IMG/VR virus record: IMGVR_UViG_3300045988_054487
Reading direction: 5' to 3' (one strand)
Length of the DNA stretch: 46,554 bases
Source of the DNA: a virus
The position numbers and the translations under genes were made by a program. Below are positions 1 to 46,554 of the stretch, one piece after another (position 1 is the stretch's first letter; every line of letters begins with the position of its first letter). Under the pieces are notes generated by a model. That model was not told the origin of the DNA, searched no databases, and saw only the letters and a program-made list of their open reading frames with translations.

Positions 1-1082
1 AAAATTGGCTTGGCGGTGCATATTGGACGCCGCCTGAAGTAACTACACGTCGCACACATGGCTATGATTTCCCTATGTGGTTTATACGCCCCTACTTTGC
101 AAAAGAAACGAAAAAAAACGCTGCTAAAAGTAAGATGACACCTAAGAAAAAACCTAAAATGAATAAAGGTAAAAAGATATTACTTGTAGCTGGACATGGT
201 AAAGGTGCTTATTCAAACGATCCGGGAGCAGTAGCTAATGGATATAATGAGCGCGATTTCAACAGAAAAGAAGTTATACCTAGAGTTAAGAAATATCTTG
301 AGAGCGTAGGTAACACTGTCGTTTTATATGGCGGCAAGAAAATGAACCAAGATTTATATCAAGATACGTTGTACGGTCAAAGAGTAGGAAATTACAAAGA
401 CTATGGTTTGTATTGGGTTAAAAACAATGTTAAACCTGACGCAATCATAGAGTTTCATCTTGACGCGGCAGGACCTCAAGCCAGTGGAGGCCATGTAATA
501 GTGAGTGATAGATTTCCTGCCGATGATATAGACAAAGCGTTATCTAGCACATTAGACAAAACAGTTGGCAAAATAAGAGGTGTGACACCTAGAAATGATC
601 TGCTAAACGCAAATGTTACTGGATCGTTAAACCTAAACTATAGATTAATAGAATTAGGTTTTATAACATCTAAAAAAGACATGAATTACATCACAAAAAA
701 TATTGACGACTTCACTAAAAGAATTGCCGAAGCGATTAATGGTAGACAAATCAATGCGCCTAAAAGTAAGCCTTCTAGTAAAAAGATAACTTGGAATTGG
801 GGAGGTACTTTCTACCCTAATGCGCCTAAAGAAGGTATTAGAGTTAGAAGATCGCCCGGCTTAAATGGTGCTATTGTCGAAAGTGGTTCGTGGTTATACC
901 GAAAAACAGATTGGGTTAAATTTGATAGAGTTATCAAAAAGGATGGATATTGGTGGATTCGCTTTAAATATCAAGCGCCGGGATCAAGCAATAAACACTT
1001 CTACTGCGCTGTATGTAAAATTACTGATAAGCAACAAAAAATCAAAAATGAGAAATACTGGGGAACTATAGAGTGGAAATGA
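1..1082 (+). CDS. Endolysin, 3' portion of exon 2 (5'-partial in this window; continues from 46190..46554 across the circular junction): end of CHAP domain, Amidase_3 (N-acetylmuramoyl-L-alanine amidase, about 170-750) and SH3b/SH3_5 cell-wall-binding domain (about 786-1079)
   Basis: The reading frame is open from nt 3 and in phase with the frame at the window end. It has CHAP C-terminal motifs ([17 protein letters not shown]), the Amidase_3 signature ILLVAGHGKG..DPGA, and a C-terminal SH3b-like segment (WNWGGTFYP...GYWWIRFKY). The stop is at 1080-1082, followed by a hairpin terminator. Confidence 0.85.
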   Translation, partial: NWLGGAYWTPPEVTTRRTHGYDFPMWFIRPYFAKETKKNAAKSKMTPKKKPKMNKGKKILLVAGHGKGAYSNDPGAVANGYNERDFNRKEVIPRVKKYLESVGNTVVLYGGKKMNQDLYQDTLYGQRVGNYKDYGLYWVKNNVKPDAIIEFHLDAAGPQASGGHVIVSDRFPADDIDKALSSTLDKTVGKIRGVTPRNDLLNANVTGSLNLNYRLIELGFITSKKDMNYITKNIDDFTKRIAEAINGRQINAPKSKPSSKKITWNWGGTFYPNAPKEGIRVRRSPGLNGAIVESGSWLYRKTDWVKFDRVIKKDGYWWIRFKYQAPGSSNKHFYCAVCKITDKQQKIKNEKYWGTIEWK

Positions 1083-1162
1083 TTTACAAACAAAAATATT
1101 GGGTATATAATAATAACCATAAAACTATTATTCATTTTTCCCACTTAATAAATTTAACTTAG

Positions 1163-1190
1163 CCACGTCGTAATAGACGTGGTTATTTTT
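1163..1190 (+). terminator. Rho-independent terminator after endolysin (stem CCACGTC/GACGTGG, then TTATTTTT)
   Basis: 7-bp perfect inverted repeat with a 6-nt loop, followed by a T-rich run. Confidence 0.7.
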
Positions 1191-1270
1191 ATGTGATACT
1201 ATTAATTACGTAACCTAAAAGGTTATTAATTTAATTGTCCCTTTTAATTTGATACTATATTATATATTAC

Positions 1271-1310
1271 GACAAACGATATCCCCCTCTCGTTTGTCTT
1301 TTTTTATTTT
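1271..1310 (+). terminator. Second rho-independent terminator (stem GACAAACG/CGTTTGTC, then TTTTTTTATTTT)
   Basis: 8-bp inverted repeat with a 12-nt loop and a long T tract. Confidence 0.7.
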
Positions 1311-1314
1311 ACTA

Positions 1315-1343
1315 TTTACATTCTTAAATGATAATGCTATAAT
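1315..1343 (+). promoter_or_regulatory. Early sigma-A-type promoter P1: TTTACA-17 bp-TATAAT with extended -10 (TGcTATAAT)
   Basis: Both hexamers are near consensus, the spacing is 17 bp, TG sits at -15/-14, and a strong RBS and the first early gene follow. Confidence 0.65.
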
Positions 1344-1373
1344 TAGTATGTAATATTTAAGGAGGGAAACAAA

Positions 1374-1559
1374 ATGAAAGAGAGTACCAAAAGTTTTATA
1401 GCCTCTGACGTAGTATTCATTGTAATGAGTATCTTACTAATGAGATTGTTTTATTTCACAACAGCAATAGGAATTTCTATTTTTATCAGCGCAGCGTTTT
1501 ATTTATTTTTTGTAAGTTATGTATTCGATAAGGAGGATAAAAATGTTAGAAACAGTTAA
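1374..1559 (+). CDS. Small hydrophobic (membrane) protein, 61 aa
   Basis: RBS AAGGAGGG 8 nt upstream; two predicted TM segments. Confidence 0.5.
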   Translation: MKESTKSFIASDVVFIVMSILLMRLFYFTTAIGISIFISAAFYLFFVSYVFDKEDKNVRNS

Positions 1560-1800: not shown

Positions 1801-2286
1801 ATGAGCAATATATACGAGTTAACAGAAAGCTACAAACAAGTATTTGACGCTATATCAAGCGGAGAAGATGATCAAGTATATTTAGATACACTACAATCAA
1901 TCAATGACAGCATAGAAGATAAAGCAGATGGTTACATGAGAATTATTAAGAATTTAGAAGGCGATAACGAAGCATTAGACAAAGAAATTAAAAGGCTTCA
2001 AGCAAGAAAGAAAACAAACGAAAATGGCATAAAACGTATGAAAGAAGATTTACAATTAGCAATGGAACAAACAAATAAATTAGCATTTAAAACGCCATTA
2101 TTCAGTTATGGTATACAAAACAATGCACCGTCATTAGACAACATAGACACATCTAAAATACCTAAAAAGTATTTTGTAGAACAAGAACCTAAATTAGATA
2201 AAAAAGCATTGTTAAACGATCTGAAAGAAGGTCAAGAAATAAACGGAGCAACTATAAAACAAACTCAATCATTAAGAGTAAGATAA
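1801..2286 (+). CDS. Siphovirus Gp157-family protein
   Basis: 161 aa and coiled-coil; composition and position, immediately upstream of an ERF-type recombinase, are typical of Sipho_Gp157 proteins in Firmicutes phages. Confidence 0.5.
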   Translation: MSNIYELTESYKQVFDAISSGEDDQVYLDTLQSINDSIEDKADGYMRIIKNLEGDNEALDKEIKRLQARKKTNENGIKRMKEDLQLAMEQTNKLAFKTPLFSYGIQNNAPSLDNIDTSKIPKKYFVEQEPKLDKKALLNDLKEGQEINGATIKQTQSLRVR

Positions 2287-2301
2287 TAGGAGGATTACAA
2301 A

Positions 2302-3015
2302 ATGAAAAAATCAGAGAGTATTGTAGAAATAAGTAAAGCATTATCAGAATTTAGAAAAGAAGTTAAACAACCGATGAAAGACGCTAACAACCCATTCTTC
2401 AAAAGTAAGTACGTTCCGTTGGAGAACGTCGTAGAAGCTATCGACGAAACAGCGCCTAAACATGGATTGTCGTTTACGCAGTGGGCTTTAAATGATAATA
2501 ATGGCAACGTAGGAGTTGCAACATTATTATTACATTCAAGTGGCGAATTTATTGAATATGACGCCGTTTATATGAAACCAGAGAAATTAACGCCTCAGGG
2601 TGCAGGTAGTACAATAAGTTATTTAAAACGTTATGCTTTATCAGCGGTTTTCGGAATTACAAGCGATGTAGACGACGACGCAAACGAAGCAAGTGGAAAT
2701 AACAAGCAGAATAATTATCAACAACGCAACAACCAACAAAGACAACAACCTCAAGCAACAAGAACGAATGATAACAAACTGCCAGTGCAAGACAAAGGAA
2801 AGTTATTACTAGCACAACAAAAAGCAACAGACTTAGCAGACGTCATAAACTCTCAAGATGAAGCAGACGGAAACAACCCTATAACACAAGAAAAGATACT
2901 AAATGGATATGTAAATAAAGTGGGTGCTACTGATTTATCGAAAGCAACAAATGAACAGTTAATTAATATTGTTCAATTGATAGATAAAAATATAGAAAAG
3001 TATAAAAACAAATAA
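2302..3015 (+). CDS. ERF-family single-strand annealing protein (recombinase) with Q/N-rich C-terminal tail
   Basis: The N-terminal 150 aa resemble the ERF fold (…FKSKYVPLENVV…YLKRYALSAVFGI…); the C-terminus is low-complexity and Q/N-rich. Confidence 0.55.
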   Translation: MKKSESIVEISKALSEFRKEVKQPMKDANNPFFKSKYVPLENVVEAIDETAPKHGLSFTQWALNDNNGNVGVATLLLHSSGEFIEYDAVYMKPEKLTPQGAGSTISYLKRYALSAVFGITSDVDDDANEASGNNKQNNYQQRNNQQRQQPQATRTNDNKLPVQDKGKLLLAQQKATDLADVINSQDEADGNNPITQEKILNGYVNKVGATDLSKATNEQLINIVQLIDKNIEKYKNK

Positions 3016-3805: not shown

Positions 3806-3988
3806 ATGAGAGAGAAAATAGAAGCAGTAATCAATTCTGATTTATCAGGATACGCAATCGAAAAGCATTGTAAAACTGTATCGCAAAATACAGTAAGCAG
3901 CCTAAGAACAGGTAAATACGAAATAGATAATTTAAGATTTAAAACTTGCGAAGAGTTATCAAAGGTTTATGACGATCTTATTAAATGA
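3806..3988 (+). CDS. Hypothetical small protein (60 aa)
   Basis: Good RBS (GAGGAG); the stop overlaps the terminator hairpin. Confidence 0.45.
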   Translation: MREKIEAVINSDLSGYAIEKHCKTVSQNTVSSLRTGKYEIDNLRFKTCEELSKVYDDLIK

Positions 3989-4008
3989 GTGCTTCGGCAC
4001 TTTTTTTA
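3988..4008 (+). terminator. Rho-independent terminator (AGTGC-TTCG-GCACT, then TTTTTTT)
   Basis: 5-bp stem with a tetraloop, followed by a 7-T run. Confidence 0.7.
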
Positions 4009-4018
4009 TATTCGATAG

Positions 4019-4047
4019 TTTACATTTTATGTTGTAAATGTTAAAAT
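4019..4047 (+). promoter_or_regulatory. Promoter P2: TTTACA-17 bp-TAAAAT with extended -10 (TGtTAAAAT); the spacer contains GTTGTAAATGT, shared with P3
   Basis: Hexamers, spacing and the TG motif; a near-identical 26-nt element occurs again at 8262-8292. Confidence 0.55.
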
Positions 4048-4074
4048 TATTTTAGATTTTAAGGAGGAATGATT

Positions 4075-4344
4075 ATGAGTAATCAAATAACAGTGAATAA
4101 AGATTTAATAACAGAAAGCAGAATGAATGGTAATAATAAAATCGTTTATATGTATTTGAAATTATTAAGCAATGGAGGAGATCTAGTACCTATACCATTG
4201 CAACATATCGCTGACGAATTATTTATAAACGTAAACACTGTGAAATCGTCAATAAAGATTTTAAGAGAGTTTGGATATATTAAAGTTCATAAGCAGTTAG
4301 GAAATAGAGGTAGTATTTTAAACGCATACGAAATAGTTAAATAA
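4075..4344 (+). CDS. Winged-helix DNA-binding protein (replication-module associated)
   Basis: RBS AAGGAGGA 7 nt upstream; HTH-like segment IPLQHIADELFINVNTVKSSIKILREFGYIKV. Confidence 0.45.
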   Translation: MSNQITVNKDLITESRMNGNNKIVYMYLKLLSNGGDLVPIPLQHIADELFINVNTVKSSIKILREFGYIKVHKQLGNRGSILNAYEIVK

Positions 4345-7724: not shown

Positions 7725-8240
7725 ATGATTGAATGGAAACCGATTGAAGGTTATGAAGGAAAATACTATATAAACCAATACGGGCAAATAATAAGTCATT
7801 ACTTTAAAGAGCCCAGAATGTTAAGTATTAAAAGTACAGACAACGAGTATTTAAGAGTAAATCTAACTCACAAAGGGAAACGAAAAAGACGGTCAATACA
7901 CAGACTTGTCGCTGAAACATTTAAACCTAATACAACCGGAGAAGATTTGCAGATCAATCACATAGACGGAGACAAATTTAACAACCATGTAGACAACTTA
8001 GAGTGGTGTACGTGTAGAGATAATATATATCACGCTTTCGAAAAAGGATTGAACCAAAACAACAACAGGATAATATTAACTGATATAGAAACAAGCGAAG
8101 AGACACATTTTATCAGTCAAAGGAGAGCGAGTGAATACTTAGGACAAAAACAAAACTATATATGCAGAATGTTTTCTAAAGGTATAAACATCGTTGAAAG
8201 TAAGAATAGTAAAATATACGAAGTAAAGCGGGAAAATTAA
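7725..8240 (+). CDS. Free-standing HNH homing endonuclease (NUMOD4 + HNH_3)
   Basis: NUMOD4 motif WKPIEGYEGKYYINQYGQI; HNH motif INHIDGDKFNNHVDNLEWCTCRDN. Confidence 0.8.
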   Translation: MIEWKPIEGYEGKYYINQYGQIISHYFKEPRMLSIKSTDNEYLRVNLTHKGKRKRRSIHRLVAETFKPNTTGEDLQINHIDGDKFNNHVDNLEWCTCRDNIYHAFEKGLNQNNNRIILTDIETSEETHFISQRRASEYLGQKQNYICRMFSKGINIVESKNSKIYEVKREN

Positions 8241-8263: not shown

Positions 8264-8292
8264 TTTACAATATTTGTTGTAAATGTTACAAT
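8264..8292 (+). promoter_or_regulatory. Promoter P3: TTTACA-17 bp-TACAAT with extended -10 (TGtTACAAT); shares GTTGTAAATGTTA with P2
   Basis: Hexamers and spacing; 26-nt similarity to the element at 4017-4047. Confidence 0.55.
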
Positions 8293-8324: not shown

Positions 8325-8516
8325 ATGTACTTTTACGACGAAGAGGAAATGCGAAACCGTTTGAAAGAAAAAGGTTTGAGCATTAGAGAATTAAGCAAAC
8401 GAGTTGATTTGCCATACAATACAGTTTACGCGATATTCAAAGGTCAAAGTAACATCGACGGAGTAAGATTGAGAGTTTACAAAAAGATAGTAAATGAATT
8501 GTGGAAAGGAGAGTAA
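8325..8516 (+). CDS. Small HTH (XRE-like) DNA-binding protein, 63 aa
   Basis: Helix-turn-helix segment LSIRELSKRVDLPYNTVYAIFKG; first gene after P3. Confidence 0.5.
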   Translation: MYFYDEEEMRNRLKEKGLSIRELSKRVDLPYNTVYAIFKGQSNIDGVRLRVYKKIVNELWKGE

Positions 8517-10374: not shown

Positions 10375-10613
10375 CTAAAAACACATTAAACGATTTGAAC
10401 AACCACTTATTCGCGCAACTCGAAAGATTAGGAGATGAAGAACTAGCAGGAGATGAGTTGAAAGAAGAGCTTGAACGTTCTAGGGCTATATCAGACATAG
10501 CTAGAAATGTTGTGAGTAACGGCAACCTTATTTTACAAGCGCATAAGTTTAAGGATCAAAGAATAGACAATGAAAACCAACTGCCTGAAATGTTAGAGGA
10601 TAAAAAGAGATGA
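10371..10613 (+). CDS. Hypothetical protein (about 80 aa, acidic helical)
   Basis: ATG 8 nt after the RBS GGAGG. Confidence 0.4.
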   Translation: MTKNTLNDLNNHLFAQLERLGDEELAGDELKEELERSRAISDIARNVVSNGNLILQAHKFKDQRIDNENQLPEMLEDKKR

Positions 10614-11683
10614 CACGTTTGACATGGAAACAAAAGCACATTGACTTTGTTAATTCTATATACAAGCAAAACAAAGCAAAAGATGTGACGAAAATGTTTA
10701 ACGATAAATTTGGAACTGATTTAAGTGTTAGTGCAGTAAGTAAGAAAATAAGGTATCTAAAAGGGTTAAACGGAAGTTATAAAAACGAAAGTGAAAGGAA
10801 TGTGAACAATAAACCTATAGGAACGATAAGAAAGGGTTTGAATGGATATTTAGAAATAAAAATAAAAAACATAAAATATAACGGCGATAAAAATTGGAAA
10901 AAGTATCATGAATATATTTGGGAAAAAGAGAATGGTAAAACGATACCTGAAAAATATAAGGTAATTTTTCTTAATGATAACAAGAGAGATTGTCGTATAG
11001 AAAACCTTCGTTTAACAACTCGTCATGTCTATAGAGTTATGATTAGTAAGAAACTATTTTCTAATGATCCTAAAGAAACGATTAAAGGTATAAAAGAAGC
11101 TGAAACATTTATAAAATCTAAAAAGCCTAAGAGAACATCGTTTAATTGGGAAAAGAAACACATTGACTTTTTAAAAAAACATGCAAAAGGTAGTAACACA
11201 AAAGAGATAACAAAAAAGTTCAACGATCATTTCAACACTAATAACAGTGATATGTCAGTACGTACACAAGTGTATAATCATAATTTAAAATTCGATAACC
11301 ACCCCGGAAGATTTAAAAAAGGGAATATACCACCGGGAGAATATAAAATAGGAGACAAAGCTATAGACGGAGACGGTGGTGTGATAATAAAAATAGCAAA
11401 TGATCATCATAATTATAAAAGGAATTGGAAGAAGTACCATATTTATTTATGGGAAAAGTATAAAGGAACCGTACCTGAAGAACACTTAGTCATATTTTTA
11501 AATAATGATAACAGAGACTTTAGAATAGAAAATTTAGAACTTGTCCCTAGAAGTATTTATCAAATGATGATATTAAACGACTTAGTATATGACGATCCAG
11601 AACTTACGAAAACAGGTATTAATATAGCTAAGTTATTAAAAAAACAAACTAAAAATTCAGTGAAAGAGATGAAAAAAAGATAA
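10610..11683 (+). CDS. Tandem-duplicated HNH_3-like protein (two about 175-aa modules; the His general base is replaced in both), a putative DNA-binding/HNH-derived protein
   Basis: Module A (aa 1-175) and module B (aa 176-357) align throughout: W.(Q/K)KHIDF, KxFNDxF…S.SAV, and NWKKYH(E/I)Y(I/L)WEK..G..PE…VIFLN.DN.D.RIENL(R/E)L. The HNH_3 consensus vdHiD appears as VIFLND in both. Confidence 0.45.
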   Translation: MTRLTWKQKHIDFVNSIYKQNKAKDVTKMFNDKFGTDLSVSAVSKKIRYLKGLNGSYKNESERNVNNKPIGTIRKGLNGYLEIKIKNIKYNGDKNWKKYHEYIWEKENGKTIPEKYKVIFLNDNKRDCRIENLRLTTRHVYRVMISKKLFSNDPKETIKGIKEAETFIKSKKPKRTSFNWEKKHIDFLKKHAKGSNTKEITKKFNDHFNTNNSDMSVRTQVYNHNLKFDNHPGRFKKGNIPPGEYKIGDKAIDGDGGVIIKIANDHHNYKRNWKKYHIYLWEKYKGTVPEEHLVIFLNNDNRDFRIENLELVPRSIYQMMILNDLVYDDPELTKTGINIAKLLKKQTKNSVKEMKKR

Positions 11684-14940: not shown

Positions 14941-15273
14941 ATGATAGTTTATTTACCACATTACGATAACGGGGAAGATTATAGTGATTATTCACATAAC
15001 GTGAGTACCAAAGCATATGTCAGATTAGAAGATGCTATTCAAGAGATAAAAGATAATGGCTTTATTATTAGAGAAGATAAGGATGTAAGTAGCATAGTAA
15101 GTACTGGTTATATAGGGGGAGATGTAGATGATAAGATCTTACCTTTTGCTTTTTACTCAATCAGTTTAGAAGAATATAGAAACAGGTTCAAATATAGTTA
15201 TTTTCCTGACGATAGTAGGGAATTTGCTTATATTAACGAAATAGAATTAGTGGAGGGAGAAACTGATGCTTAA
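14941..15273 (+). CDS. Hypothetical protein (110 aa)
   Basis: RBS TAGGAG. Confidence 0.45.
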   Translation: MIVYLPHYDNGEDYSDYSHNVSTKAYVRLEDAIQEIKDNGFIIREDKDVSSIVSTGYIGGDVDDKILPFAFYSISLEEYRNRFKYSYFPDDSREFAYINEIELVEGETDA

Positions 15274-15424
15274 ACGTATATTAAAGATTTGGTTTATTAT
15301 TATGATGTATGAAGTTGGTAAACTATTAGGCAGGGAGTTGTATTACTACTTAACAGCCAATGATGATATTGAAGCGCCAAACGACTTTAATGAAGAAGAT
15401 CACATACATTTAAACGATTTATAA
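15266..15424 (+). CDS. Small single-TM peptide (52 aa); below the ORF-track size cut-off
   Basis: ATG at 15266 with RBS GGAGGG 8 nt upstream; hydrophobic core ILKIWFIIMMYEVG. Confidence 0.35.
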   Translation: MLKRILKIWFIIMMYEVGKLLGRELYYYLTANDDIEAPNDFNEEDHIHLNDL

Positions 15425-16231: not shown

Positions 16232-16265
16232 TTGACTATGAAACCTATATGTATTATATTTATTA

Positions 16266-16284
16266 TAGCAATTATATATTGCTA
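16266..16284. repeat. Palindrome TAGCAAT-TATAT-ATTGCTA immediately downstream of recU-like gene
   Basis: Perfect 7-bp inverted arms separated by 5 nt. Confidence 0.5.
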
Positions 16285-16370
16285 ATGATTTAATCCTTTG
16301 TTTATCTTTTTCTTGTAATTTGTAATTTGATTTTCTCATTATCATTTCTGACTGCATGACTTACTTAGTA

Positions 16371-16400
16371 CGCCGGCTATTTTAGTCGGTGTATTTTTTT
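16371..16400 (+). terminator. Candidate rho-independent terminator (CGCCGGC-TATTTTA-GTCGGTG with two G-U pairs, then TATTTTTTT)
   Basis: GC-rich imperfect stem followed by a T tract. Confidence 0.45.
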
Positions 16401-16466
16401 GTCTGATTTTAATAATGAATAAAACATAACTCGTGTTTATCTCGTATATATTTTGTTATATTTTCG

Positions 16467-16495
16467 TGCATATCTTGTTCGTATTGTGTTATAAT
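16467..16495 (+). promoter_or_regulatory. Promoter P4 with extended -10 (TGtTATAAT at 16487-16495), a weak -35 and an AT-rich upstream region; drives the nuclease/MTase/packaging operon
   Basis: Consensus -10 with TG, same architecture as P1-P3. Confidence 0.5.
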
Positions 16496-16528
16496 AGAGT
16501 ATAAGCAAAAACAGAAAGTAGGGAAGGT

Positions 16529-16693
16529 ATGAAAGGAGCGTACGATGTACACGAAGTCGCAGAATTTTTAGAAATAAGTGTTCAGTCAGTGAGGAAATAC
16601 ATCAAAGAAGGAAAGCTCAAAGCTGTATTGATCGCAAACAAGCACGTTATATCGGAACGTAATTATCAAAAGTTTATTGACGGAGATTGGTAG
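16529..16693 (+). CDS. Small HTH_17/excisionase-family-type DNA-binding protein (54 aa); not in the ORF track
   Basis: MKGAYDVHEVAEFLEISVQSVRKYIKEGKLKAVLIANKHVISERNYQKFIDGDW; a MerR/Xis-like HTH. RBS spacing is suboptimal. Confidence 0.4.
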   Translation: MKGAYDVHEVAEFLEISVQSVRKYIKEGKLKAVLIANKHVISERNYQKFIDGDW

Positions 16694-17615: not shown

Positions 17616-19115
17616 ATGGAAATTATAAACAAAAGTATATATGACATTATAGATTATGATGACAACCCTAGATACAACGATGAAGCAATAGACTATGTGA
17701 AAGAAAGTATTAAAGAATTTGGTTTTAAAGTACCGATTATCATTGATGAAAATGATGTGATCATAGCAGGACATACAAGAAAGAAAGCGGCACTCGAGAT
17801 AGGTATTAAAGAGGTGCCAGTTATTGTTGCCGATGATCTTACACCGCAACAAGTTGACGCATTTAGATTGGCCGACAATAAAGTCGCTGAATTTAGTGAG
17901 TGGGATGAAGATTTATTGATGAGTGAACTCAATAAACTAGATGATTTAGACATGAGTGCGTTTGGCTTTGAAGATATGGAGTTAGATTTAGAAGATACAG
18001 AAATCGAAGAAGAAGAGATTGAAGAAGATGAAGTAGTAGAAATACCGGAAGAACCTAAGTCTAAATTCGGTCAAATATACCAACTCGGCAATCATAGACT
18101 AATGTGTGGTGATAGTACAAGCGATGAAGATGTTAGCAAGTTAATGAACGGACAACAGGCATCGTTAGTGTTTACTGATCCACCTTATGGAGCTAAGAAA
18201 CAAAAAGACGGTGTGCTCAATGATAATCTTAACTATGACAGCTTATTAGAATTTAATAAGTTATGGATACCACTATCATTTAAATATTTAAAAGAGAATG
18301 GCAGTTGGTATTGTTGGGGATTAGATCAACCACTTATGGATATTTACACAGAGATATTAAAGCCTAAGATTAAGAATAACGAGATTGTATTTAAAAACTT
18401 AATCACATGGGATAAAGGATCAGGACAGGGACAAAATTCTGATGCCCTAACAAAATATGCAACAGCAGATGAGAAATGTTTATTTGTCGCTGGAGATGTA
18501 GACAGCATGCCTAACAATTTCTATGAAGGGTATCGACCTATATTGAACGCATTAAAAGAACAAGCTGAAAAAGTAGGATTAGGATCTAAGAAGTACAAAG
18601 AAATCATAGGCGCACAGATGTATAGCCATTACTTCTCAGACTCTCAATTCTCACTAATACCACGAGAGGTATTTGCTAAATTAAAGAAACACTACGGAGA
18701 AGCGTGGGAATTAACATGGGAAGAATTAAGCCGTATGATAAACAAAGCTACACCCGGCCATAATGATTATGTAGAAGAACACAGAATGAAGAGGTCATAT
18801 TTCAATAACACACATGATAACATGAACAATGTATGGCACATTAACAGAATAGTATCAGGCACAGAAGAGTATAAAGACAAAGGTCAACACGTTACGCCTA
18901 AACCATTAGCCCTATGTAGTCGAGGTATTAAATCAAGTTCTAAAGAACAAGAAATAGTTCTCGATTTATTCGGTGGCAGTGGTAGTGTGCTTATATCTAG
19001 TGAGTTAGAAAATAGAACATGCTATACAATGGAATACCAACCTCAATATGTGGATGCAATCATAGAAAGATGGGAAAGACGCACAGGCAGAAAGGCGGAG
19101 TTGCTGAATGGATAA
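17616..19115 (+). CDS. ParB-like nuclease domain fused to a beta-class amino (N6A/N4C) DNA methyltransferase
   Basis: N-terminal ParB/Srx-like motif (…VPIIIDENDVIIAGHTRKKAA…). Motif IV DPPY (VFTDPPYGA) precedes the C-terminal motif I (VLDLFGGSGS), a beta-class order. Confidence 0.8.
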   Translation: MEIINKSIYDIIDYDDNPRYNDEAIDYVKESIKEFGFKVPIIIDENDVIIAGHTRKKAALEIGIKEVPVIVADDLTPQQVDAFRLADNKVAEFSEWDEDLLMSELNKLDDLDMSAFGFEDMELDLEDTEIEEEEIEEDEVVEIPEEPKSKFGQIYQLGNHRLMCGDSTSDEDVSKLMNGQQASLVFTDPPYGAKKQKDGVLNDNLNYDSLLEFNKLWIPLSFKYLKENGSWYCWGLDQPLMDIYTEILKPKIKNNEIVFKNLITWDKGSGQGQNSDALTKYATADEKCLFVAGDVDSMPNNFYEGYRPILNALKEQAEKVGLGSKKYKEIIGAQMYSHYFSDSQFSLIPREVFAKLKKHYGEAWELTWEELSRMINKATPGHNDYVEEHRMKRSYFNNTHDNMNNVWHINRIVSGTEEYKDKGQHVTPKPLALCSRGIKSSSKEQEIVLDLFGGSGSVLISSELENRTCYTMEYQPQYVDAIIERWERRTGRKAELLNG

Positions 19116-30567: not shown

Positions 30568-33500
30568 ATGGCAAGTGTAAAGGAGTTATATGCCAAGATT
30601 AGTGCCACTGCCGAAGGTTTTAATAAGACAATGGATAGTATATCTAGCAAGACAAGACAGACAGCTAAGAGTATATCCAGTCAATCCAGTGTCATGAGTA
30701 AAAGCCTAGAAGGTATCGGTAAAGCTGGGCGTAGCTTTGACAACATAGGAAACAAAATACAAAATGTTTCTAAAAATGTTGGTGGCGTTGGCGAAAAAAT
30801 GACTAACTCTATAACTAAGCCAGCAGGCATTGCAGCTGGTGCAGTTGGTGGACTTGTCGGTGCTTTAGGTTTCAAACGTCTTGTCGGAATGGATCAGGCA
30901 GAAGCTAAGTTAAAAGGTATCGGTCTTGCAGGTAAAGACGTTACAAAGATACAAAACCAAGTATCTAAGTCTATCGAAGGTAGTATGACAACTATGGCCG
31001 AAGGTACTGACTTAGCAGCAGGTGCCTTAGGATCAGGTGTTAAAGAAGGAAAAGAATTAGAAAAATACATAAAAGCAGCAGGTAACGCTGCAGTAGGTGC
31101 TAACGTACCTGTATCTGAAATGGGACAAATATTCAGTCGTGTTAAAGGTCAGGGTAAATTGGCCGGAACTGAACTACAAATGATGGAAGAACGTTTACCG
31201 GGCTTCACTTCTACTATGGCAAGAGAAATGGGCTTGTCTATGGAAGAATTTAGAAACAAAGTTTCTGAAGGTGAGGTTGGATATGACGAGTTCTTAAAAG
31301 GGGTTGAAGCTAGAGCTGGTAAATCGGCAGAGGCTCAATCTCAAACATTTATGGGTATGCTTACCAACACTAAAAACTATTTAGGAATGATTGGAGAAGC
31401 ATTTCTACAACCAGCATTTAAAGAGGCTAAAGTTGTATTAGCTGATATCGTTAATACATTAAATAGTGACTCATTAAGACAAAGTGCTGCAGAAGCAGGG
31501 AAAGTAGTAGCGCCAGCGTTCGCTTTTCTAGCTAAAGCAGTCACAGGAACGGTTAAGGCTTTCTTAAATCTACCCGGACCGGTATTAGGCGCAATTGGTG
31601 CTTTAGGTGGTATATTAATTGCAATCGGTCCAGTGCTAACAGGTTTTGCTAAGTTAGGTGGTATGATCGGAGGAATGTTCAAAACATTCGGATCATTACT
31701 ATCATTCGTGTCAGCATTAAACCCAGTCGGACTAATTATCATGGGTATTGTTGCGGCAGTCGCAGCATTAGGAACAGCTTTCTATATCGCCTATCAGAAA
31801 TCAGAAACATTTAGAAACTTCATCAACGGTATAGGCACTATGATAAGTGGTGCTATTGGTTGGGTTAAACAATTCGGCCAAGCAATTGGCGCGCTTTTCT
31901 CAGGAAACACTGGAGAAGGCGTCAACATATTAGAAAAACTAGGATTTAATCAAAGTCAAATATCAGCGATACAGGGTATGGTATCAAGTCTTAAAAGTAT
32001 ATTTACTGAATTAGGACGAGTGTTAGCGATAACATTTAATGAGATGAAAGGCGCTTGGAATGGAGTAGCTAGTGCATTCACTGGATCAATTCCATTTATT
32101 AAAATGGCGTTCTCTAACATGGTAGCAATACTAGGTCCGATATTTATGGCTTTAGTGAATGTTGTTAAGACAGTGTTCACAACTATAATTTCTGTCATTC
32201 GTGGCGCTTTCCAAATGATACAGGGCGTTATACAAATATTTAGCGGTCTTGTACAGGGCGACTGGTCGTTAGTATGGCAAGGCGTAGTAAATATATTCAA
32301 AGGTTTCTTTGGTATATTAGTTGCCTTAGTTAAACAGCTTGTCATGACGCTATTCTATATAGTTAAAGGATTGGCTACTAGTTTAGGTAATGCCTTACGC
32401 ATTGCTTTTGGCGTCGTCAAAAATATCATCGTCGGTATTTTCAACGGTATCAAGTGGGTAGTAGTTACAATATTTAAAGGCATGGTTAATGCTATCGTTG
32501 TCAGCGCACAAACATTGTGGTTGAGAATAACACAAATTTTTAATGCACTTAAATTTGCTATTACAGCTATATGGAATGGAATTAAATTTGTTTCTGTAGC
32601 AGTATGGAATAGTATTAAGTTTTTAGTAGTTGGTTTCGTTCGAACTATGAAAAATTTAATAATGATGATACTTGGCGGACTGAAAGCCGGTATATTGGCA
32701 ATTTGGAACGGAATCAAGTTTGTCACAATGTTTGTTTGGAATTTAATCAAGAATAGAGTTATAGCCAATGCTCGTATCATGAAGAATTTAGTCGTTGCCA
32801 TATTTAGAAGTTTAAAAGCTATCGTTTCTGCTATATGGAACGGACTTAAAAACTTTGTCATCTTAGTATGGAACACATTAAAAAATAGAGTAATTGCAAT
32901 TACTCGTATTTTGAAAAATATCGTAATTTCAGTAATACGAATAATGAAAAATATCGTTATTGCAACATTTAGAATAATGAAGAACATTGTTATTGCAGTG
33001 TGGAACGCATTGAAAAATAGAGTTATCGCAGTTGCTCGTATCATGAAAAACATTGTTATTACAGTTATTCGAACATTGAAGAATGTTGTTATTAGCATAT
33101 TTAGAGCATTGAAAAATGTAGCGATTGCTATTTGGAATGGAATTAAAAATAAAGTTATTTCTTTAGCTCGAACAATGAAGAACGTTGCTATATCAATAGT
33201 TCGCGCAATGAAAAACGCGATACTTGGAATTTGGAAAGCGCTCAAAAACGTAACAATTTCAATTTGGAACGCAATCAAAAATAAAGTAATCGGTTTAGCT
33301 CGCGGTTTGAAGAGCGCTGCACTTAGTGTTTTCCGTTCATTGAAGTCAGGTATTACTGGAATATGGAATGGTATAAAATCTGTTACATCTAAAGTATGGA
33401 ACGGAATTAAAAATGTAGCTATCGGCGCAGCTAAAGGAATGAAAAGTAAAGTCTTAGGTTTATTTGGTTCCATGAAAAACGGAATCAAAAAACAAATTGA

Positions 33501-35400
33501 TAACATCAAAGGGTTTATGGATAAAATGGTTGGTGGCGTTAAGAAAGGACTTAACGGACTAATCAAAGGTGTTAACTGGGTAGCCGGCAAACTAGGTATG
33601 GATAAGCTACCAGAGATAAAACTACATAGCGGTACTGTGGGTGGTGGACGTCTTGTAAGAAACGGAAAACTAAACACAGGCACAATGGCTACTGTAGGAG
33701 ATAAAGGTCGAGGAAATGGACCGGGCGGCTTTAGAAATGAAATGATACGCTATCCTAACGGAAGAATGGCACTAACACCTGATAAAGATACAACAACATT
33801 CTTGCCTAAAGGTTCAAGCGTATATAGCGGCGCACAAACACATTCATTATTGAGTAGCTTACCTAAGTTTTCTACTGGTACTAATCCATTAGGCAACGGA
33901 AACAAAAAGCCTAAGAAAAAGAAAAAAGGCGACAACATATTCGGCGACGCGTGGGACGCAACGAAAGCTGGTGCAGCTAAAGTCGTTGACGGTGGTAAAG
34001 CAGTTGTTAGCAAAACACTCGACGCTGCCGCAAAAGGTAAAGAGTGGTTAAGTGATAAAGTCGGAGATGTGCTTGACTGGATAGACAAACCAGAAAAACT
34101 ATTGGATAAAGTTCTTGAAGGCTTTGGAGTTAACTTAGATGGTTTCGGAATAACTAAAGCTGCTGAATTACCTTACAACATGATGAAAGGTATGTTCGGT
34201 AAACTTAAAAAAGGTGCTATAGAGAAATTTAAAGAATGGTTTGAAGAAAGTAGTAGTGGCGACGGTGGATACATTGACCTTTCTAAAGGTATAAACTTTG
34301 GTTTCGCTAGAACAGCTGCAGAAGCAGCAGCTCAGGGTTATCCGTTCGCAAGACCTCACTATGGTTTGGATATAAATTATAAATACGACAAAGTATATTC
34401 AACGCTTTCTGGTATGGCAACAGGTAGTTCAGGTTGGAACGGTGGTTTTGGTCAAAACATGTGGATAAGAGCCAAAAACGGAGTAGAAGCCATATACGGA
34501 CACCTTCACAAACTAGCCTTTCATGGTAAAAAACGTGTCAAACCGGGAACTTACTTAGGTATTTCCGGTGGGGATCCGGGACGTGACGGACAAAACGCCG
34601 GAAGTTCTACAGGTCCACACTTACACTATGAAATGCGCTGGAATGGAGTTCCTAAAGATCCAACAAGCTGGTTGAAGAAAAACAATGGTGGCGGCAAAGT
34701 CGGTGGCAGTGGATCAGGAAATGCACGTAAGGCAATCAAGAAAGCACAAGCGATTTTAGGCGGACGTTACAAGTCATCTTATATCACTGAACAAATGATG
34801 AGAGTCGCCAAACGTGAATCCAACTTCCAAGCTGACGCAGTCAATGACTGGGACGTCAATGCTAGAGCTGGAACACCTTCTAAAGGTATGTTCCAAATGA
34901 TTGAACCATCTTTTAAAGCATATGCTAAAAAAGGACATGGGAACATATTAAATCCAACTGACCAAGCTATATCAGCTATGCGCTACATTGTAGGTAAATG
35001 GGTTCCTATTATGGGAAGTTGGAAAAGTGCGTTTAAACGTGCAGGAGATTATGCTTATGCTAACGGTGGTATTGTTAATTCGCCAGAGTTAGCATGGATT
35101 GCCGAAGGTGGTTTCAGTGAGTCTGTTATAAGTCATGACCCTAGAAAACGTATGAGAAGTAAAAGCATACATGATAAAACAGGCAAAATGCTCGGTGTTG
35201 ATGATGATACGCAAATGTTACGAGAAATCATTAATATTCTTGAAGCTGGCAACCACTTACAATCTGTTAATAATAACGCTGTTAATAGATTGTTAGATAA
35301 AAACGTCGACATCTATATGGATAAGAAAAAACTAACACAAGCGGTCAACAATCAGTCAGCGGACTTATTCAATTCCGGTATGTATAATCAGGGAGGTTAA
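30568..35400 (+). CDS. Tape measure protein (1610 aa) with an 11-aa tandem repeat core, a C-terminal M23 peptidase domain (about 34336-34670) and a lytic transglycosylase SLT domain (about 34800-35000)
   Basis: N-terminal TMP-like helical region; about 29 copies of an ..IWN.IKN.V.. 11-mer. The M23 domain is YGHLH…GTYLGISG…GPHLHYE. The SLT domain is …AKRESNFQADAVN…GMFQM…. Confidence 0.85.
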   Translation: MASVKELYAKISATAEGFNKTMDSISSKTRQTAKSISSQSSVMSKSLEGIGKAGRSFDNIGNKIQNVSKNVGGVGEKMTNSITKPAGIAAGAVGGLVGALGFKRLVGMDQAEAKLKGIGLAGKDVTKIQNQVSKSIEGSMTTMAEGTDLAAGALGSGVKEGKELEKYIKAAGNAAVGANVPVSEMGQIFSRVKGQGKLAGTELQMMEERLPGFTSTMAREMGLSMEEFRNKVSEGEVGYDEFLKGVEARAGKSAEAQSQTFMGMLTNTKNYLGMIGEAFLQPAFKEAKVVLADIVNTLNSDSLRQSAAEAGKVVAPAFAFLAKAVTGTVKAFLNLPGPVLGAIGALGGILIAIGPVLTGFAKLGGMIGGMFKTFGSLLSFVSALNPVGLIIMGIVAAVAALGTAFYIAYQKSETFRNFINGIGTMISGAIGWVKQFGQAIGALFSGNTGEGVNILEKLGFNQSQISAIQGMVSSLKSIFTELGRVLAITFNEMKGAWNGVASAFTGSIPFIKMAFSNMVAILGPIFMALVNVVKTVFTTIISVIRGAFQMIQGVIQIFSGLVQGDWSLVWQGVVNIFKGFFGILVALVKQLVMTLFYIVKGLATSLGNALRIAFGVVKNIIVGIFNGIKWVVVTIFKGMVNAIVVSAQTLWLRITQIFNALKFAITAIWNGIKFVSVAVWNSIKFLVVGFVRTMKNLIMMILGGLKAGILAIWNGIKFVTMFVWNLIKNRVIANARIMKNLVVAIFRSLKAIVSAIWNGLKNFVILVWNTLKNRVIAITRILKNIVISVIRIMKNIVIATFRIMKNIVIAVWNALKNRVIAVARIMKNIVITVIRTLKNVVISIFRALKNVAIAIWNGIKNKVISLARTMKNVAISIVRAMKNAILGIWKALKNVTISIWNAIKNKVIGLARGLKSAALSVFRSLKSGITGIWNGIKSVTSKVWNGIKNVAIGAAKGMKSKVLGLFGSMKNGIKKQIDNIKGFMDKMVGGVKKGLNGLIKGVNWVAGKLGMDKLPEIKLHSGTVGGGRLVRNGKLNTGTMATVGDKGRGNGPGGFRNEMIRYPNGRMALTPDKDTTTFLPKGSSVYSGAQTHSLLSSLPKFSTGTNPLGNGNKKPKKKKKGDNIFGDAWDATKAGAAKVVDGGKAVVSKTLDAAAKGKEWLSDKVGDVLDWIDKPEKLLDKVLEGFGVNLDGFGITKAAELPYNMMKGMFGKLKKGAIEKFKEWFEESSSGDGGYIDLSKGINFGFARTAAEAAAQGYPFARPHYGLDINYKYDKVYSTLSGMATGSSGWNGGFGQNMWIRAKNGVEAIYGHLHKLAFHGKKRVKPGTYLGISGGDPGRDGQNAGSSTGPHLHYEMRWNGVPKDPTSWLKKNNGGGKVGGSGSGNARKAIKKAQAILGGRYKSSYITEQMMRVAKRESNFQADAVNDWDVNARAGTPSKGMFQMIEPSFKAYAKKGHGNILNPTDQAISAMRYIVGKWVPIMGSWKSAFKRAGDYAYANGGIVNSPELAWIAEGGFSESVISHDPRKRMRSKSIHDKTGKMLGVDDDTQMLREIINILEAGNHLQSVNNNAVNRLLDKNVDIYMDKKKLTQAVNNQSADLFNSGMYNQGG
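32480..33480. repeat. Tandem 33-nt (11-codon) repeats within the TMP gene
   Basis: Protein-level periodicity (A/S)IWNGIKN.VI. / R.MKN.VI. repeated about 29 times; it also creates a stop-free antisense frame. Confidence 0.8.
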
Positions 35401-44827: not shown

Positions 44828-45097
44828 ATGAAACCTGATGTAGGTACAATAACTAGGGTTGTATTATTCATTTTAGCTTGGGTTAACCAAATACTAGCTA
44901 ATTATAATTTATCCCCTATAGAAGCAAGCGAAGAAAATATCAGTGACATTATCACTGGTGCAATTTCTGTTTGGGTATTATGGAAAAACAACAACTTTAC
45001 ACATGCTGCAAAAGAAGGACAACAAAAAATAAACGAGGTCAAATCCGGAAATAACAAACATACAGGTTCGCCCGTTATTGATGAGGAGGATTTATAA
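44828..45097 (+). CDS. Holin (SPP1-family type)
   Basis: Two TM segments (ITRVVLFILAWVNQILA; IITGAISVWVLW) and a charged C-terminus; immediately upstream of the endolysin. Confidence 0.65.
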   Translation: MKPDVGTITRVVLFILAWVNQILANYNLSPIEASEENISDIITGAISVWVLWKNNNFTHAAKEGQQKINEVKSGNNKHTGSPVIDEEDL

Positions 45098-45184
45098 TGA
45101 CTTCAATAAGAACATATAAACAAGCGTCGAAGTATCTAAAGTATATGGAGGGCAAAGCATGGAATCCAGATAGAGCATATGGAT
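45097..45184 (+). CDS. Endolysin exon 1 (29 codons + 1 nt), the N-terminus of the CHAP domain
   Basis: RBS GAGGAGGA 6 nt upstream; the ATG overlaps the holin stop (TAATG). It encodes MTSIRTYKQASKYLKYMEGKAWNPDRAYG, which is collinear with the phi11-type lysin N-terminus (…WLKTSEGKQFNVDLWYGF|QCFD…). Confidence 0.7.
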
Positions 45185-46189
45185 TAATTGATAGTCCATA
45201 TAAAACCTATTGAATTGCTGGGAACCCCTAACGTAAAGTCGAGGGCAATCAGCAGCGAAGCCTTTGTGGTAACAGCGAAGGAACGTTCAACGACTAAGTG
45301 CATACAATCGTATGACAGCGGTAGGTATTCTTGATACATATAAAAAACATGATATAATCAAGACAACAATTACGGAAAGGTGTTTTGATTATGGTTAGTA
45401 GTGTTGAAATCGGAAAAAGATATAACAACGTAAAAATTTTAGAGTATTCTCATAAAAATAAACACAACAAGAAAAAGTACAAATGTAAATGTATGTTATG
45501 TGGCAAAGTTTTTATTACGTTAGGCACTACAGTTAAAACAGGGAGGTTAAAAAGTTGTGGTTGCTTATCTAATAAAAAAGCTAAAGAAAGAATGGAAAAA
45601 CATGGAATGCATGGCACTCAAATATATAATCGTTGGAAGGGTATGAAATCAAGATGCAGGAATAAATCTTACCACGCCTATCATAGATACAATGGTAAAG
45701 GTATAACTGTTTGCGAACGGTGGCAAAATGATTTTATGAACTTTTATAACGATATGAACGATACATTCTTTGAAGGGGCTGAATTAGATAGAATAGACAA
45801 CAGCAAAGGTTATTATCCTGAAAATTGTAGATGGGTTACACATAAACAAAATTGTAACAACAGAGATAAATATAAAAATAACACTGGTTACACAGGAGTG
45901 CATTTCGGAAAGAAAAACAAAACTTATCAGGTTAATATGTGTCACAAAAGAAAAAGTATCTATATTGGAAGTTACAAAAATATAAAAGATGCAGTAAACG
46001 CAAGAAAATCATTTATATTGAAATTCAACAAAGATAATGGGACAAATTATAAATATGAAGAGTATCAAGAATAATGATATAGTCTAGTCTTATATGAAAG
46101 TATAAGGTTTCTAAAACAGAAACTATTTAGCGTTACACAAAATTATAGAGAAATCTATAATCAGAGAGGCGTTAAATATAATACAAACG
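45185..46189 (+). mobile_element. Group I self-splicing intron (about 1005 nt) interrupting the endolysin CHAP domain, carrying an HNH homing endonuclease ORF
   Basis: P1: the exon-1 end AUGGAU pairs with the intron GUCCAU (45194-45199), with a U-G wobble at the 5' splice site. P10: the exon-2 start AUCAAU (46190-46195) pairs with AUUGAU (45187-45192), directly adjacent to the P1 strand, forming a contiguous internal guide sequence. The last intron nucleotide is G (46189). A structured GC-rich core runs from 45210 to 45330. The spliced junction reads [16 protein letters not shown]. Confidence 0.7.
45385..46074 (+). CDS. Intron-encoded HNH-family homing endonuclease with an N-terminal Cys-cluster zinc finger
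   Basis: CKCMLCG…SCGC zinc finger. An AP2-like/HNH-associated motif (IYNRWKGMKSRCRNKSYHAYHRYNGKGITVCERW) and ELDRIDNSKGYYPENCRWVTHKQNCNN; it lies entirely inside the intron. Confidence 0.6.
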   Translation: MIMVSSVEIGKRYNNVKILEYSHKNKHNKKKYKCKCMLCGKVFITLGTTVKTGRLKSCGCLSNKKAKERMEKHGMHGTQIYNRWKGMKSRCRNKSYHAYHRYNGKGITVCERWQNDFMNFYNDMNDTFFEGAELDRIDNSKGYYPENCRWVTHKQNCNNRDKYKNNTGYTGVHFGKKNKTYQVNMCHKRKSIYIGSYKNIKDAVNARKSFILKFNKDNGTNYKYEEYQE

Positions 46190-46554
46190 ATCAATGTTTT
46201 GATACAGCAAACCAATATTGGATGTACTTATTCGGACATATGTTAAAAGGCATAGGCGCTGCAGATATTCCTACATGGAATAACTTCAAAGGAGAAGCAA
46301 AAGTCTATGAAAACACATTAGACTTTCTACCTAAACGTGGAGATTTAGTTATATTCAACAGAAATTATGGTGGCGGTTACGGACACGTTGGTATTGTCAT
46401 AAAAGCAACATTAGATTACATAGTGATCATAGAGCAAAATTGGCTTGGCGGTGCATATTGGACGCCGCCTGAAGTAACTACACGTCGCACACATGGCTAT
46501 GATTTCCCTATGTGGTTTATACGCCCCTACTTTGCAAAAGAAACGAAAAAAAAC
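46190..46554 (+). CDS. Endolysin exon 2, 5' part (3'-partial in the window; continues at 120..1082 via the circular junction), the CHAP catalytic core
   Basis: Encodes (Y)[10 protein letters not shown]…GDLVIF…YGHVGIVI…, with the catalytic Cys in QCFD and the His in GHVG; same frame as 1..1082. Confidence 0.7.
46436..46554. repeat. 119-nt exact duplicate of window positions 1-119 (terminal redundancy of a circularly permuted or circular assembly)
   Basis: Character-for-character identity between 1-119 and 46436-46554. Confidence 0.9.

Follow-up and report, generated by a model that had tools for sequence, protein, structure and literature searches.

In the temperate staphylococcal phages phiPV83 (Peeveelvirus) and IME1348_01 (Rockefellervirus) the lysin gene ends the late operon, and a lysogeny cassette of 4.5–6.3 kb separates the DUF1270 or Gp157 gene from the attP end of the record. 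The cassette comprises attP, an integrase of tyrosine or serine type on the minus strand, a CI-type repressor, cro and an antirepressor. In phiPV83 the order is attP, int and cI (both on the minus strand), cro, ant, DUF1270, DUF1108, Gp157, ERF and SSB, such that the DUF1270 gene stands downstream of cro and ant. In IME1348_01 attP is followed by four minus-strand genes (serine integrase, DUF5067, metalloprotease and an HTH protein), after which come a further HTH gene, ant, a hypothetical gene, Gp157, ERF and SSB. As CI-type repressor phiPV83 has an HTH_3 plus S24 protein, whereas IME1348_01 has a short HTH protein together with a metalloprotease. A third temperate phage, IME1323_01, carries the lysin that is most similar to the one studied here outside its genus (75.7%). 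In the prophage-ordered record of this phage the lysin is found near one end and the integrase at the other.

The closest described phages are Staphylococcus epidermidis siphoviruses. Whether they are strictly lytic decides the use of their genus against S. epidermidis implant infections, and on this question the literature disagrees. For CUB-EPI_14 (2022) no lysogeny-associated proteins were found, all genes were in sense orientation and headful packaging was predicted (PMC9230115). In the Lacachita paper the integrase was reported absent from six genomes of the genus (PMC10286716), and when Sazerac and five relatives were announced in 2026 they were again described as lacking lysogeny genes (PMC13064016). 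The absence of these genes from the genus, being reported in three papers, is thus already known. PhageAI, on the other side of the disagreement, called the genus temperate (PMC9230115, PMC10286716). Lacachita transduces a plasmid, the transductants plate the phage 100-fold less well, its plaques are intermittently turbid, and a 46.7-kb contig of the genus was found inside an S. epidermidis isolate assembly. A plasmid prophage was proposed for it, citing a "ParB" and a "resistance protein" (PMC10286716).

The DNA analysed here (in the following called the window) is the whole 46,554-nucleotide stretch of the IMG/VR virus record IMGVR_UViG_3300045988_054487. Comparison of both ends revealed a terminal overlap of 119 bp, so that the window represents the complete genome, assembled as a circle of ~46.4 kb. 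Its first position falls within the lysin gene, and its plausible genes are all on the plus strand. According to the terminal overlap and a blastn comparison with the intron-less lysin of L015, the lysin gene begins at 45097 and continues across the joined ends of the circle. Judged by its sequence the window is a member of the Lacachita/CUB-EPI_14/Sazerac genus. As measure of membership we took a genome-wide nucleotide identity above about 70% to named members together with a common gene order. Over the part compared, the identity in the first 4 kb was 98.3% to Sazerac, 95.1% to Lacachita, 92.6% to Southeast and 91.8% to CUB-EPI_14, and the gene order over 20 kb was shared with public contigs, Sazerac included. 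Altogether the named members Sazerac (ON550478), Lacachita (OP142323), CUB-EPI_14 (ON325435), Southeast (OQ623150) and S-CoN_Ph27 (OR354850) have 91–98% nucleotide identity to the window, and like the window they carry their genes on one strand and are without integrase. A metagenome scaffold (ENA ERZ28651620 scaffold_73) matches the first 3 kb with 100% identity.

The stop codon of the lysin gene (TGA) occupies positions 1080–1082 and the next ATG is found at 1374, which leaves a non-coding gap of 291 bp. The gap and its surroundings contain the following features:

1–1082, plus strand: 3' part of lysin exon 2 with Amidase_3 and SH3b_P2 domains (Pfam)
1083–1111, plus strand: P1, promoter-like site TTTACA-17-TATAAT (11/12 match), directly after the lysin stop and facing terminator 1
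1160–1192, plus strand: terminator 1, with a 10-bp stem, a 6-nt loop and a T-rich tail (scan, fold)
1193–1270, plus strand: inter-terminator segment, invariant up to 1265 (read from the sequence)
1271–1305, plus strand: terminator 2, with a 9-bp stem, a 10-nt C-rich loop UAUCCCCCUC and then T7 (fold, annotation)
1315–1343, plus strand: P2, predicted early promoter TTTACA-17-TGcTATAAT with extended -10 (11/12 match; promoter scan)
1374–1559, plus strand: DUF1270 membrane protein, the first early gene (Pfam, PHROG, tblastn)
1801–3015, plus strand: Gp157 (Gam-like) and ERF recombinase, used as anchors for comparing temperate relatives (Pfam)

The gap 1083–1373 is the terminator–promoter boundary between the late (lysis) and the early transcription unit. 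It contains a G+C-rich hairpin with a T run as well as -35 and -10 hexamers at 17-nt spacing, which are followed by a ribosome binding site (AAGGAGGG at 1359–1366) and the start codon. An initial annotation of this DNA had described a spacer with two terminators and one promoter after the lysin. The two intrinsic terminators and the promoter P2 were confirmed, while a second 11/12 site, P1, had been overlooked. In the GenBank record of Lacachita the same gap is annotated as promoter, terminator, terminator, promoter, with P1 given as a putative promoter, and both terminators are also annotated in the records of Sazerac and Southeast.

Terminator 1 (stem-loop 1160–1185, then TTTTTAT) was the sole terminator-like site found by the scan between 900 and 1600, where 0.1 sites are expected by chance. 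Terminator 2 (stem 1271–1279/1290–1298) was not picked up by the scan since its loop is larger than 8 nt. It was present in the minimum-free-energy as well as in the centroid fold of 1117–1310 (z = -4.8). The segment between the terminators holds two TGATACTAT repeats (1194–1202 and 1250–1258) and a small hairpin, TAACC-TAAAA-GGTTA, at 1211–1225. P2 is composed of TTTACA (1315–1320), the 17-nt spacer with TG at 1335–1336, and TATAAT (1338–1343). On both strands of the whole genome only three 11/12 promoter matches were obtained, namely P1, P2 and one inside the lysin intron. Weak promoter-like matches in the first 20 kb were not above chance (104 found vs 97 expected). Two more intergenic sites at 4019–4047 and 8264–8292 have the form TTTACA-17-TGnTAnAAT, i.e. 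they are of the same class as P2, and each is preceded by a terminator. Terminator–promoter pairs thus recur in the genome (3987–4047, 8222–8292 and around 16367–16496), which indicates that such modules are its normal punctuation. At the boundary, the two terminators would stop read-through out of the lysin gene, and P2, a promoter of sigma-A type with extended -10, would start the early operon from DUF1270 over Gp157 and ERF onward.

The gene order around the gap is of the temperate type, as had been claimed, and matches that of phiPV83 and IME1348_01: the window shares with them the lysin at the end of the late operon and the succession of DUF1270 or a small ORF, Gp157, ERF and SSB. Its Gp157 is 35–60% identical to those of the two phages. 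The DUF1270 gene matched its Pfam family with 1.2e-5 and 26.0 bits, slightly below the curated cutoff of 27, phrog_369 with 2e-11, and orf13 of phiPV83 with 4e-8 in tblastn. Unlike phiPV83 and IME1348_01, the window lacks the whole cassette. The early operon begins at DUF1270, directly 3' of the spacer, and the cassette is gone without trace. The initial annotation had located the loss at the lysin/early boundary, and the comparators indeed hold the cassette exactly there, between lysin/attP and DUF1270/Gp157. The temperate relatives have their attP site, integrase, CI/Cro switch and antirepressor at exactly this position, and in the window no remnant of them was detected.

Outside the genus no homology to the spacer was found except for short AT-rich chance matches. 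When the spacer was compared by blastn-short with the regions after the lysin and the lysogeny regions of the temperate comparators, nothing beyond chance-level 9–13-mers was obtained. Nucleotide homology to temperate phages that would mark excision breakpoints was thus not detected. The suggestion that such a comparison might reveal a clean excision of the cassette was thus not borne out.

Lysogeny genes were searched on both strands with Pfam profiles, in nearly all ORFs with a length of 50 aa or more (as concatenated ORFs). The tape measure gene and two large tail genes were covered in separate searches, the Pfam part of which gives the 25 commonest families (146 ORFs). Among the plus-strand early and late ORFs of at least 50 aa that were scanned, no match to Phage_integrase, Resolvase/Recombinase or Peptidase_S24 was obtained. 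On the minus strand 73 ORFs of this minimum length were scanned without any significant Pfam match, and a single sub-threshold match was listed, in agreement with the claim that the window has no convincing minus-strand gene. A 442-aa minus-strand ORF antisense to the tape measure gene was considered as a real gene and rejected, as it has no Pfam domain above threshold. Likewise, a divergent CI-type repressor/cro switch was not found, with no domain above threshold in minus-strand ORFs and no Peptidase_S24.

In addition, 41 sequences were used as tblastn queries with E values up to 10. They covered the integrase-to-DUF1108 regions of IME1348_01, IME1323_01 and phiPV83, including the integrases, repressors, cro proteins and antirepressors of these three temperate phages, as well as six early proteins of the phage TPWB-09. 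The sole significant match was the DUF1270 gene (1374–1538, E = 4e-8); the integrases of the three staphylococcal phages gave E > 1 against the window. A frameshifted or split pseudogene remnant of the cassette, which the initial annotation had named as the finding that would speak against it, was rejected, since DUF1270 alone was matched at E values up to 10. Overall, neither the profile search nor tblastn found an integrase, serine recombinase, S24 repressor, cro or antirepressor. The Pfam search was controlled on relatives with 60% identical Gp157, in which it readily detected a tyrosine integrase, a serine recombinase, HTH_3 plus S24 repressors and a Bro-N antirepressor, all of them located within 2–7 kb upstream of Gp157. 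The stated absence of tyrosine and serine recombinases therefore holds for the ORFs searched. Integration of the Xer/dif type was also considered and rejected, as no site within 3 mismatches of the Firmicutes dif was present. No tRNA genes were found in the window.

The claim that the window contains no repressor anywhere requires a distinction. It holds for CI-type and S24 repressors, but four small HTH proteins are encoded, one of which is of Cro/CI type. Together with a RinB homologue these are:

3806–3988, plus strand: transcriptional regulator (PHROG)
4069–4344, plus strand: HTH_36 protein (Pfam), with PHROG matches to N-terminal regions of replication initiators
8325–8516, plus strand: 63-aa Cro/CI-type HTH protein (HTH_3; 25.6 bits vs a cutoff of 23)
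15266–15424, plus strand: RinB homologue (NCBIfam equivalog with 74.7 bits vs a cutoff of 25; Pfam, PHROG)
16529–16693, plus strand: 54-aa HTH_17 protein of excisionase/MerR type (TIGR01764 with 20.2 bits, below the cutoff of 28.8)

The protein at 8325–8516 is the only HTH_3 match and the sole XRE-family protein of the genome. It sits within the early/replication gene block, has its own terminator–promoter pair upstream, and its PHROG matches include transcriptional regulator and repressor families. The HTH_17 protein is without a partner integrase. Neither the four HTH proteins nor the RinB homologue have the size, the orientation or the S24 domain of a CI repressor. Any of the four could nonetheless regulate transcription, possibly damping early transcription, and they could include a repressor. 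RinB belongs to a regulator family that is typical of temperate staphylococcal phages.

We assign a probability of roughly 80% to the following reading: the window is the complete genome of a phage of this genus, the spacer is its late/early boundary, the lysogeny cassette is absent as an old trait of the lineage, and the phage replicates lytically. The earlier interpretation, a genome of temperate type that lacks genes for integration and for CI-type immunity, was mostly right. Without the cassette the phage is unable to integrate and lacks CI-type immunity. It would replicate lytically and package its DNA by headful, which would account for the published transduction, and apparent lysogeny would represent a carrier state. 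The designation as obligately lytic is contested by the transduction and the reduced plating on transductants described for Lacachita (PMC10286716).

The spread of the junction bears on its age. The identical junction was found in at least 14 independent genomes, of which the 13 other than the window differ by at most 6 positions in 291 bp. Among these 13 are phages isolated in Germany and at three sites in the US as well as several assemblies of public metagenomes or sequencing runs. In the alignment Sazerac, Lacachita, CUB-EPI_14 and Southeast have the 291-bp spacer as in the window, again with at most 6 differences. The exact Gp157 protein occurred in 51 blocks of a public assembly collection. 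The longest contigs carrying it were 20–50 kb in 16 blocks and none exceeded 50 kb, the complete-looking ones being ~46 kb in size, such that no chromosomally integrated copy was seen. In all 10 loci listed for the exact Gp157 the 291-bp gap between lysin and DUF1270 was present, and none of them had a recombinase. In a viral-contig collection a single-protein query with Gp157 found no relatives, and the exact 20-mer of terminator 1 was found in one IMG/VR contig only.

A more distant phage, TPWB-09 (PQ358088), is ~70% identical to the window in Gp157 and ERF. As in the window, its endolysin gene is followed by a promoter-like site right behind the stop codon, a terminator and a second promoter, after which come early genes on the plus strand, Gp157 and ERF among them, and there is no integrase at the junction. 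The first site, TTTACA-17-TATAGT directly after the stop, is the positional counterpart of P1, and a second TTTACA-17-TATAGT follows the terminator. The two spacers have the 13-mer ATACTATATTATA in common, at equal position relative to the terminator. TPWB-09 differs from the window in having a single terminator, in four small ORFs that separate the spacer from Gp157, and in genes annotated as Ant and transcriptional repressor further downstream on the same strand. A junction that is common to at least 14 genomes, with the same layout in TPWB-09, indicates that the missing cassette characterises the lineage and does not go back to a recent deletion.

Within the spacer, conservation was pronounced. 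Over positions 1083–1265 only one of the 183 columns was variable across 14 genomes, compared with 12.8% of the columns in the lysin gene (mostly third codon positions) and 11–23% in the first three early genes. When six diverse genomes were compared jointly, this core had the lowest variability of all 183-nt windows in the 9 kb around it, and the next least variable windows include the terminator–promoter gap 3884–4067. The regulatory gaps thus appear to be the most constrained parts of the region. In pairwise comparisons the spacer did not stand out, as the genomes are mosaic and zero-difference windows are common (6–32% of windows); it does so only jointly. The conservation of the core is higher than a pure terminator–promoter spacer would need and suggests a function beyond spacing.

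One such function would be a small RNA of ~75 nt from P1 to terminator 1, maybe with a second one reaching up to terminator 2, that regulates early genes or host mRNAs. Several features would fit: P1 is an 11/12 match of the TTTACA-17 class to which three other intergenic early promoters belong, it faces terminator 1, and TPWB-09 too has a promoter-like site after the lysin stop. The near-invariance of 1083–1265 agrees with such an RNA as well, and a similar unit of promoter, ~100 nt and terminator is found at 16232–16395. The transcripts would carry the C-rich unpaired motifs UUUCCCAC and, in the loop of terminator 2, UCCCCCUC, and a CCC motif is also present in the terminator loop of TPWB-09. 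C-rich unpaired motifs of this kind resemble the UCCC motifs of staphylococcal Rsa RNAs.

Other results count against a small RNA. No Rfam family matched: with Rfam 15 the best score over 1000–1450 was 21.3 bits, far below the gathering score of 35.7, and the others were further below theirs. Predicted duplexes with 49 phage translation-initiation regions were no better than those of shuffled sequence. Given that zero-difference windows are common between pairs of these mosaic genomes and that another terminator–promoter gap is among the conserved windows, ordinary regulatory constraint may suffice. The region, being invariant, offers no covariation. We therefore regard a small RNA as rather unlikely. 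That RNAs from the first 183 bp of the spacer provide an RNA-based damping of lytic development in this integrase-less and repressor-less lineage is a further, highly speculative step; if true, it could account for the behaviour of Lacachita that resembles pseudolysogeny and is under dispute.

The phage might also be temperate without integrating, namely as an extrachromosomal plasmid prophage with a ParB-like partition protein and a phage-resistance gene, as proposed for Lacachita. The reduced plating, the turbid plaques and the contig in an isolate assembly all fit some persistent intracellular state, and together with the transduction and the PhageAI call they form the published case for such a prophage (PMC10286716). 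The size of the public contigs, which when complete-looking are genome-sized and never longer, would likewise be obtained for an episome. The two genes cited in this case were examined in the window. The counterpart of "ParB" is the following:

17616–19115, plus strand: 499-aa fusion of ParB_N with an N6/N4 DNA methyltransferase (Pfam, PHROG, NCBIfam, structure relatives)

In this protein ParB_N covers residues ~15–90, and the remainder is a beta-class N6_N4_Mtase domain (Pfam). It scored 41.8 bits against the partition family TIGR00180 (cutoff 58.45) and matched only positions 23–116 of the 186 model positions, i.e. the N-terminal part. Its best full-length family is phrog_498, a DNA methyltransferase family (8e-112), and its nearest solved proteins are M.MboIIA and M.RsrI. 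The assignment as a partition ParB (ParB/RepB/Spo0J) was rejected on the sub-cutoff score, the methyltransferase remainder and the lack of a detected ParA. The "resistance protein" of Lacachita is Sipho_Gp157, which is now annotated as Gam-like end protection, has ERF as its neighbour and is shared with the integrating phages of the comparison; as evidence for plasmid maintenance it was rejected too.

Plasmid prophages with ParAB of the P1 and N15 type resemble the window in having no integrase and a ParB_N-domain protein, and in nothing more. Unlike in these phages, the ParB-like protein of the window is without HTH or dimerisation part, and no ParA, plasmid replication initiator (Rep family) or immunity region was detected, nor was a divergent repressor gene. 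A PLSDB search with the first 20 kb of the window returned no matching plasmid, only two 3% matches. With the "ParB" being a methyltransferase fusion, the "resistance protein" being Gp157, and neither ParA nor Rep being detected, the gene-level case for plasmid maintenance fails. The sequence-based reclassification of the two proteins is, next to the conservation of the spacer core, an addition of this analysis, and it removes the two gene-level arguments for a plasmid prophage. We consider such a prophage improbable. The phenotypes of Lacachita also fit the carrier state that goes with lytic replication in the preferred reading. Headful packaging with transduction is a practical concern for therapy under either lifestyle.

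Finally, it is scarcely credible that the genome arose recently as a deletion derivative of clear-plaque or laboratory type, in which the cassette was excised from a temperate phage at this site: its gene content and order are as in temperate staphylococcal phages and it retains the RinB homologue and the excisionase-type HTH protein, but the same junction recurs in 13 other genomes with at most 6 differences, TPWB-09 has a common layout at ~70% identity, no pseudogene fragments are left, and the spacer is without homology to temperate phages. The initial annotation had offered a deletion derivative as an option, which as a recent or clean event has to be abandoned. With respect to the named members of the genus, the differences of the window are allelic and mosaic only. 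The lysin intron, for example, is present in the window and not in CUB-EPI_14, and the number of HNH endonuclease genes differs among the genomes of the genus.

A group I intron about 1 kb long (roughly 45185-46189) splits the lysin gene; the Rfam model RF00028 matched at 45175-45430 with 62.9 bits. The intron has its own reading frame, to which the strong promoter-like site at 45331-45358 belongs.

45097-46554 and 1-1082: lysin gene, split by the group I intron
45385-46074: intron-borne ORF, 229 aa

CUB-EPI_14 and two public contigs of the genus (L015, L018) were without the intron, which, judged from these sequences, is therefore polymorphic within the genus. In the Lacachita record the intron is already annotated. 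Free-standing endonuclease genes were noted as well.

7725-8240: HNH/NUMOD4 endonuclease gene
10610-11683: HNH/NUMOD4 endonuclease gene

Their number and position vary among the otherwise near-identical genomes (the window and the public loci L009-L018): one such gene sits, for instance, between Gp157 and ERF in L018, 3' of HNHc_6 in L017 and ahead of SSB in L009-L012. This varying endonuclease-gene content between genomes suggests active homing. In the same comparison the Dam methylase gene was present in some genomes only. At 17616-19115, the "ParB" of the Lacachita paper consists of a ParB_N domain joined to an N6/N4 DNA methyltransferase; the protein scored below the cutoff of the partition-ParB model.

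Directly 3' of the lysin stop codon we observed an 11/12 promoter-like match that points at terminator 1, a stem-loop with a T-rich tail (window 1083-1192). Transcription from this site to the terminator would yield a putative RNA of ~75 nt. Across 14 genomes, positions 1083-1265 hardly vary. The second large gap (297 bp, 16232-16528) is built like the lysin-to-early spacer:

16232-16260: promoter-like TTGACT-17-TATATT, 3' of the RecU stop codon
16367-16395: terminator with a 13-bp stem
After this terminator, ahead of the HTH_17 gene: extended -10 TGTTATAAT

Approximately 100 nt separate the promoter-like site from the terminator, and the gap could harbour another short transcript or mark the middle-to-late boundary.

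One long minus-strand frame runs opposite the tape measure gene, which is repetitive, and gave no family match:

32355-33683, minus strand: 442-aa ORF

This frame almost certainly results from the tape measure repeats. The same 119-bp sequence occupies both window ends (1-119 and 46436-46554); it is the mark of a circular assembly and not a biological terminal repeat.

Staphylococcal-type prophage contigs (L021, L022, L026) were also encountered in GTDB representatives labelled Rheinheimera tilapiae, Micromonospora sp. and Nocardioides sp. Gp157 is ~60% identical in these prophage regions, two of the contigs have a common length of 41,200 bp, and an upstream integrase and CI-type repressor were confirmed in the two examined (L021, L022). 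These contigs look like contamination of the respective assemblies.
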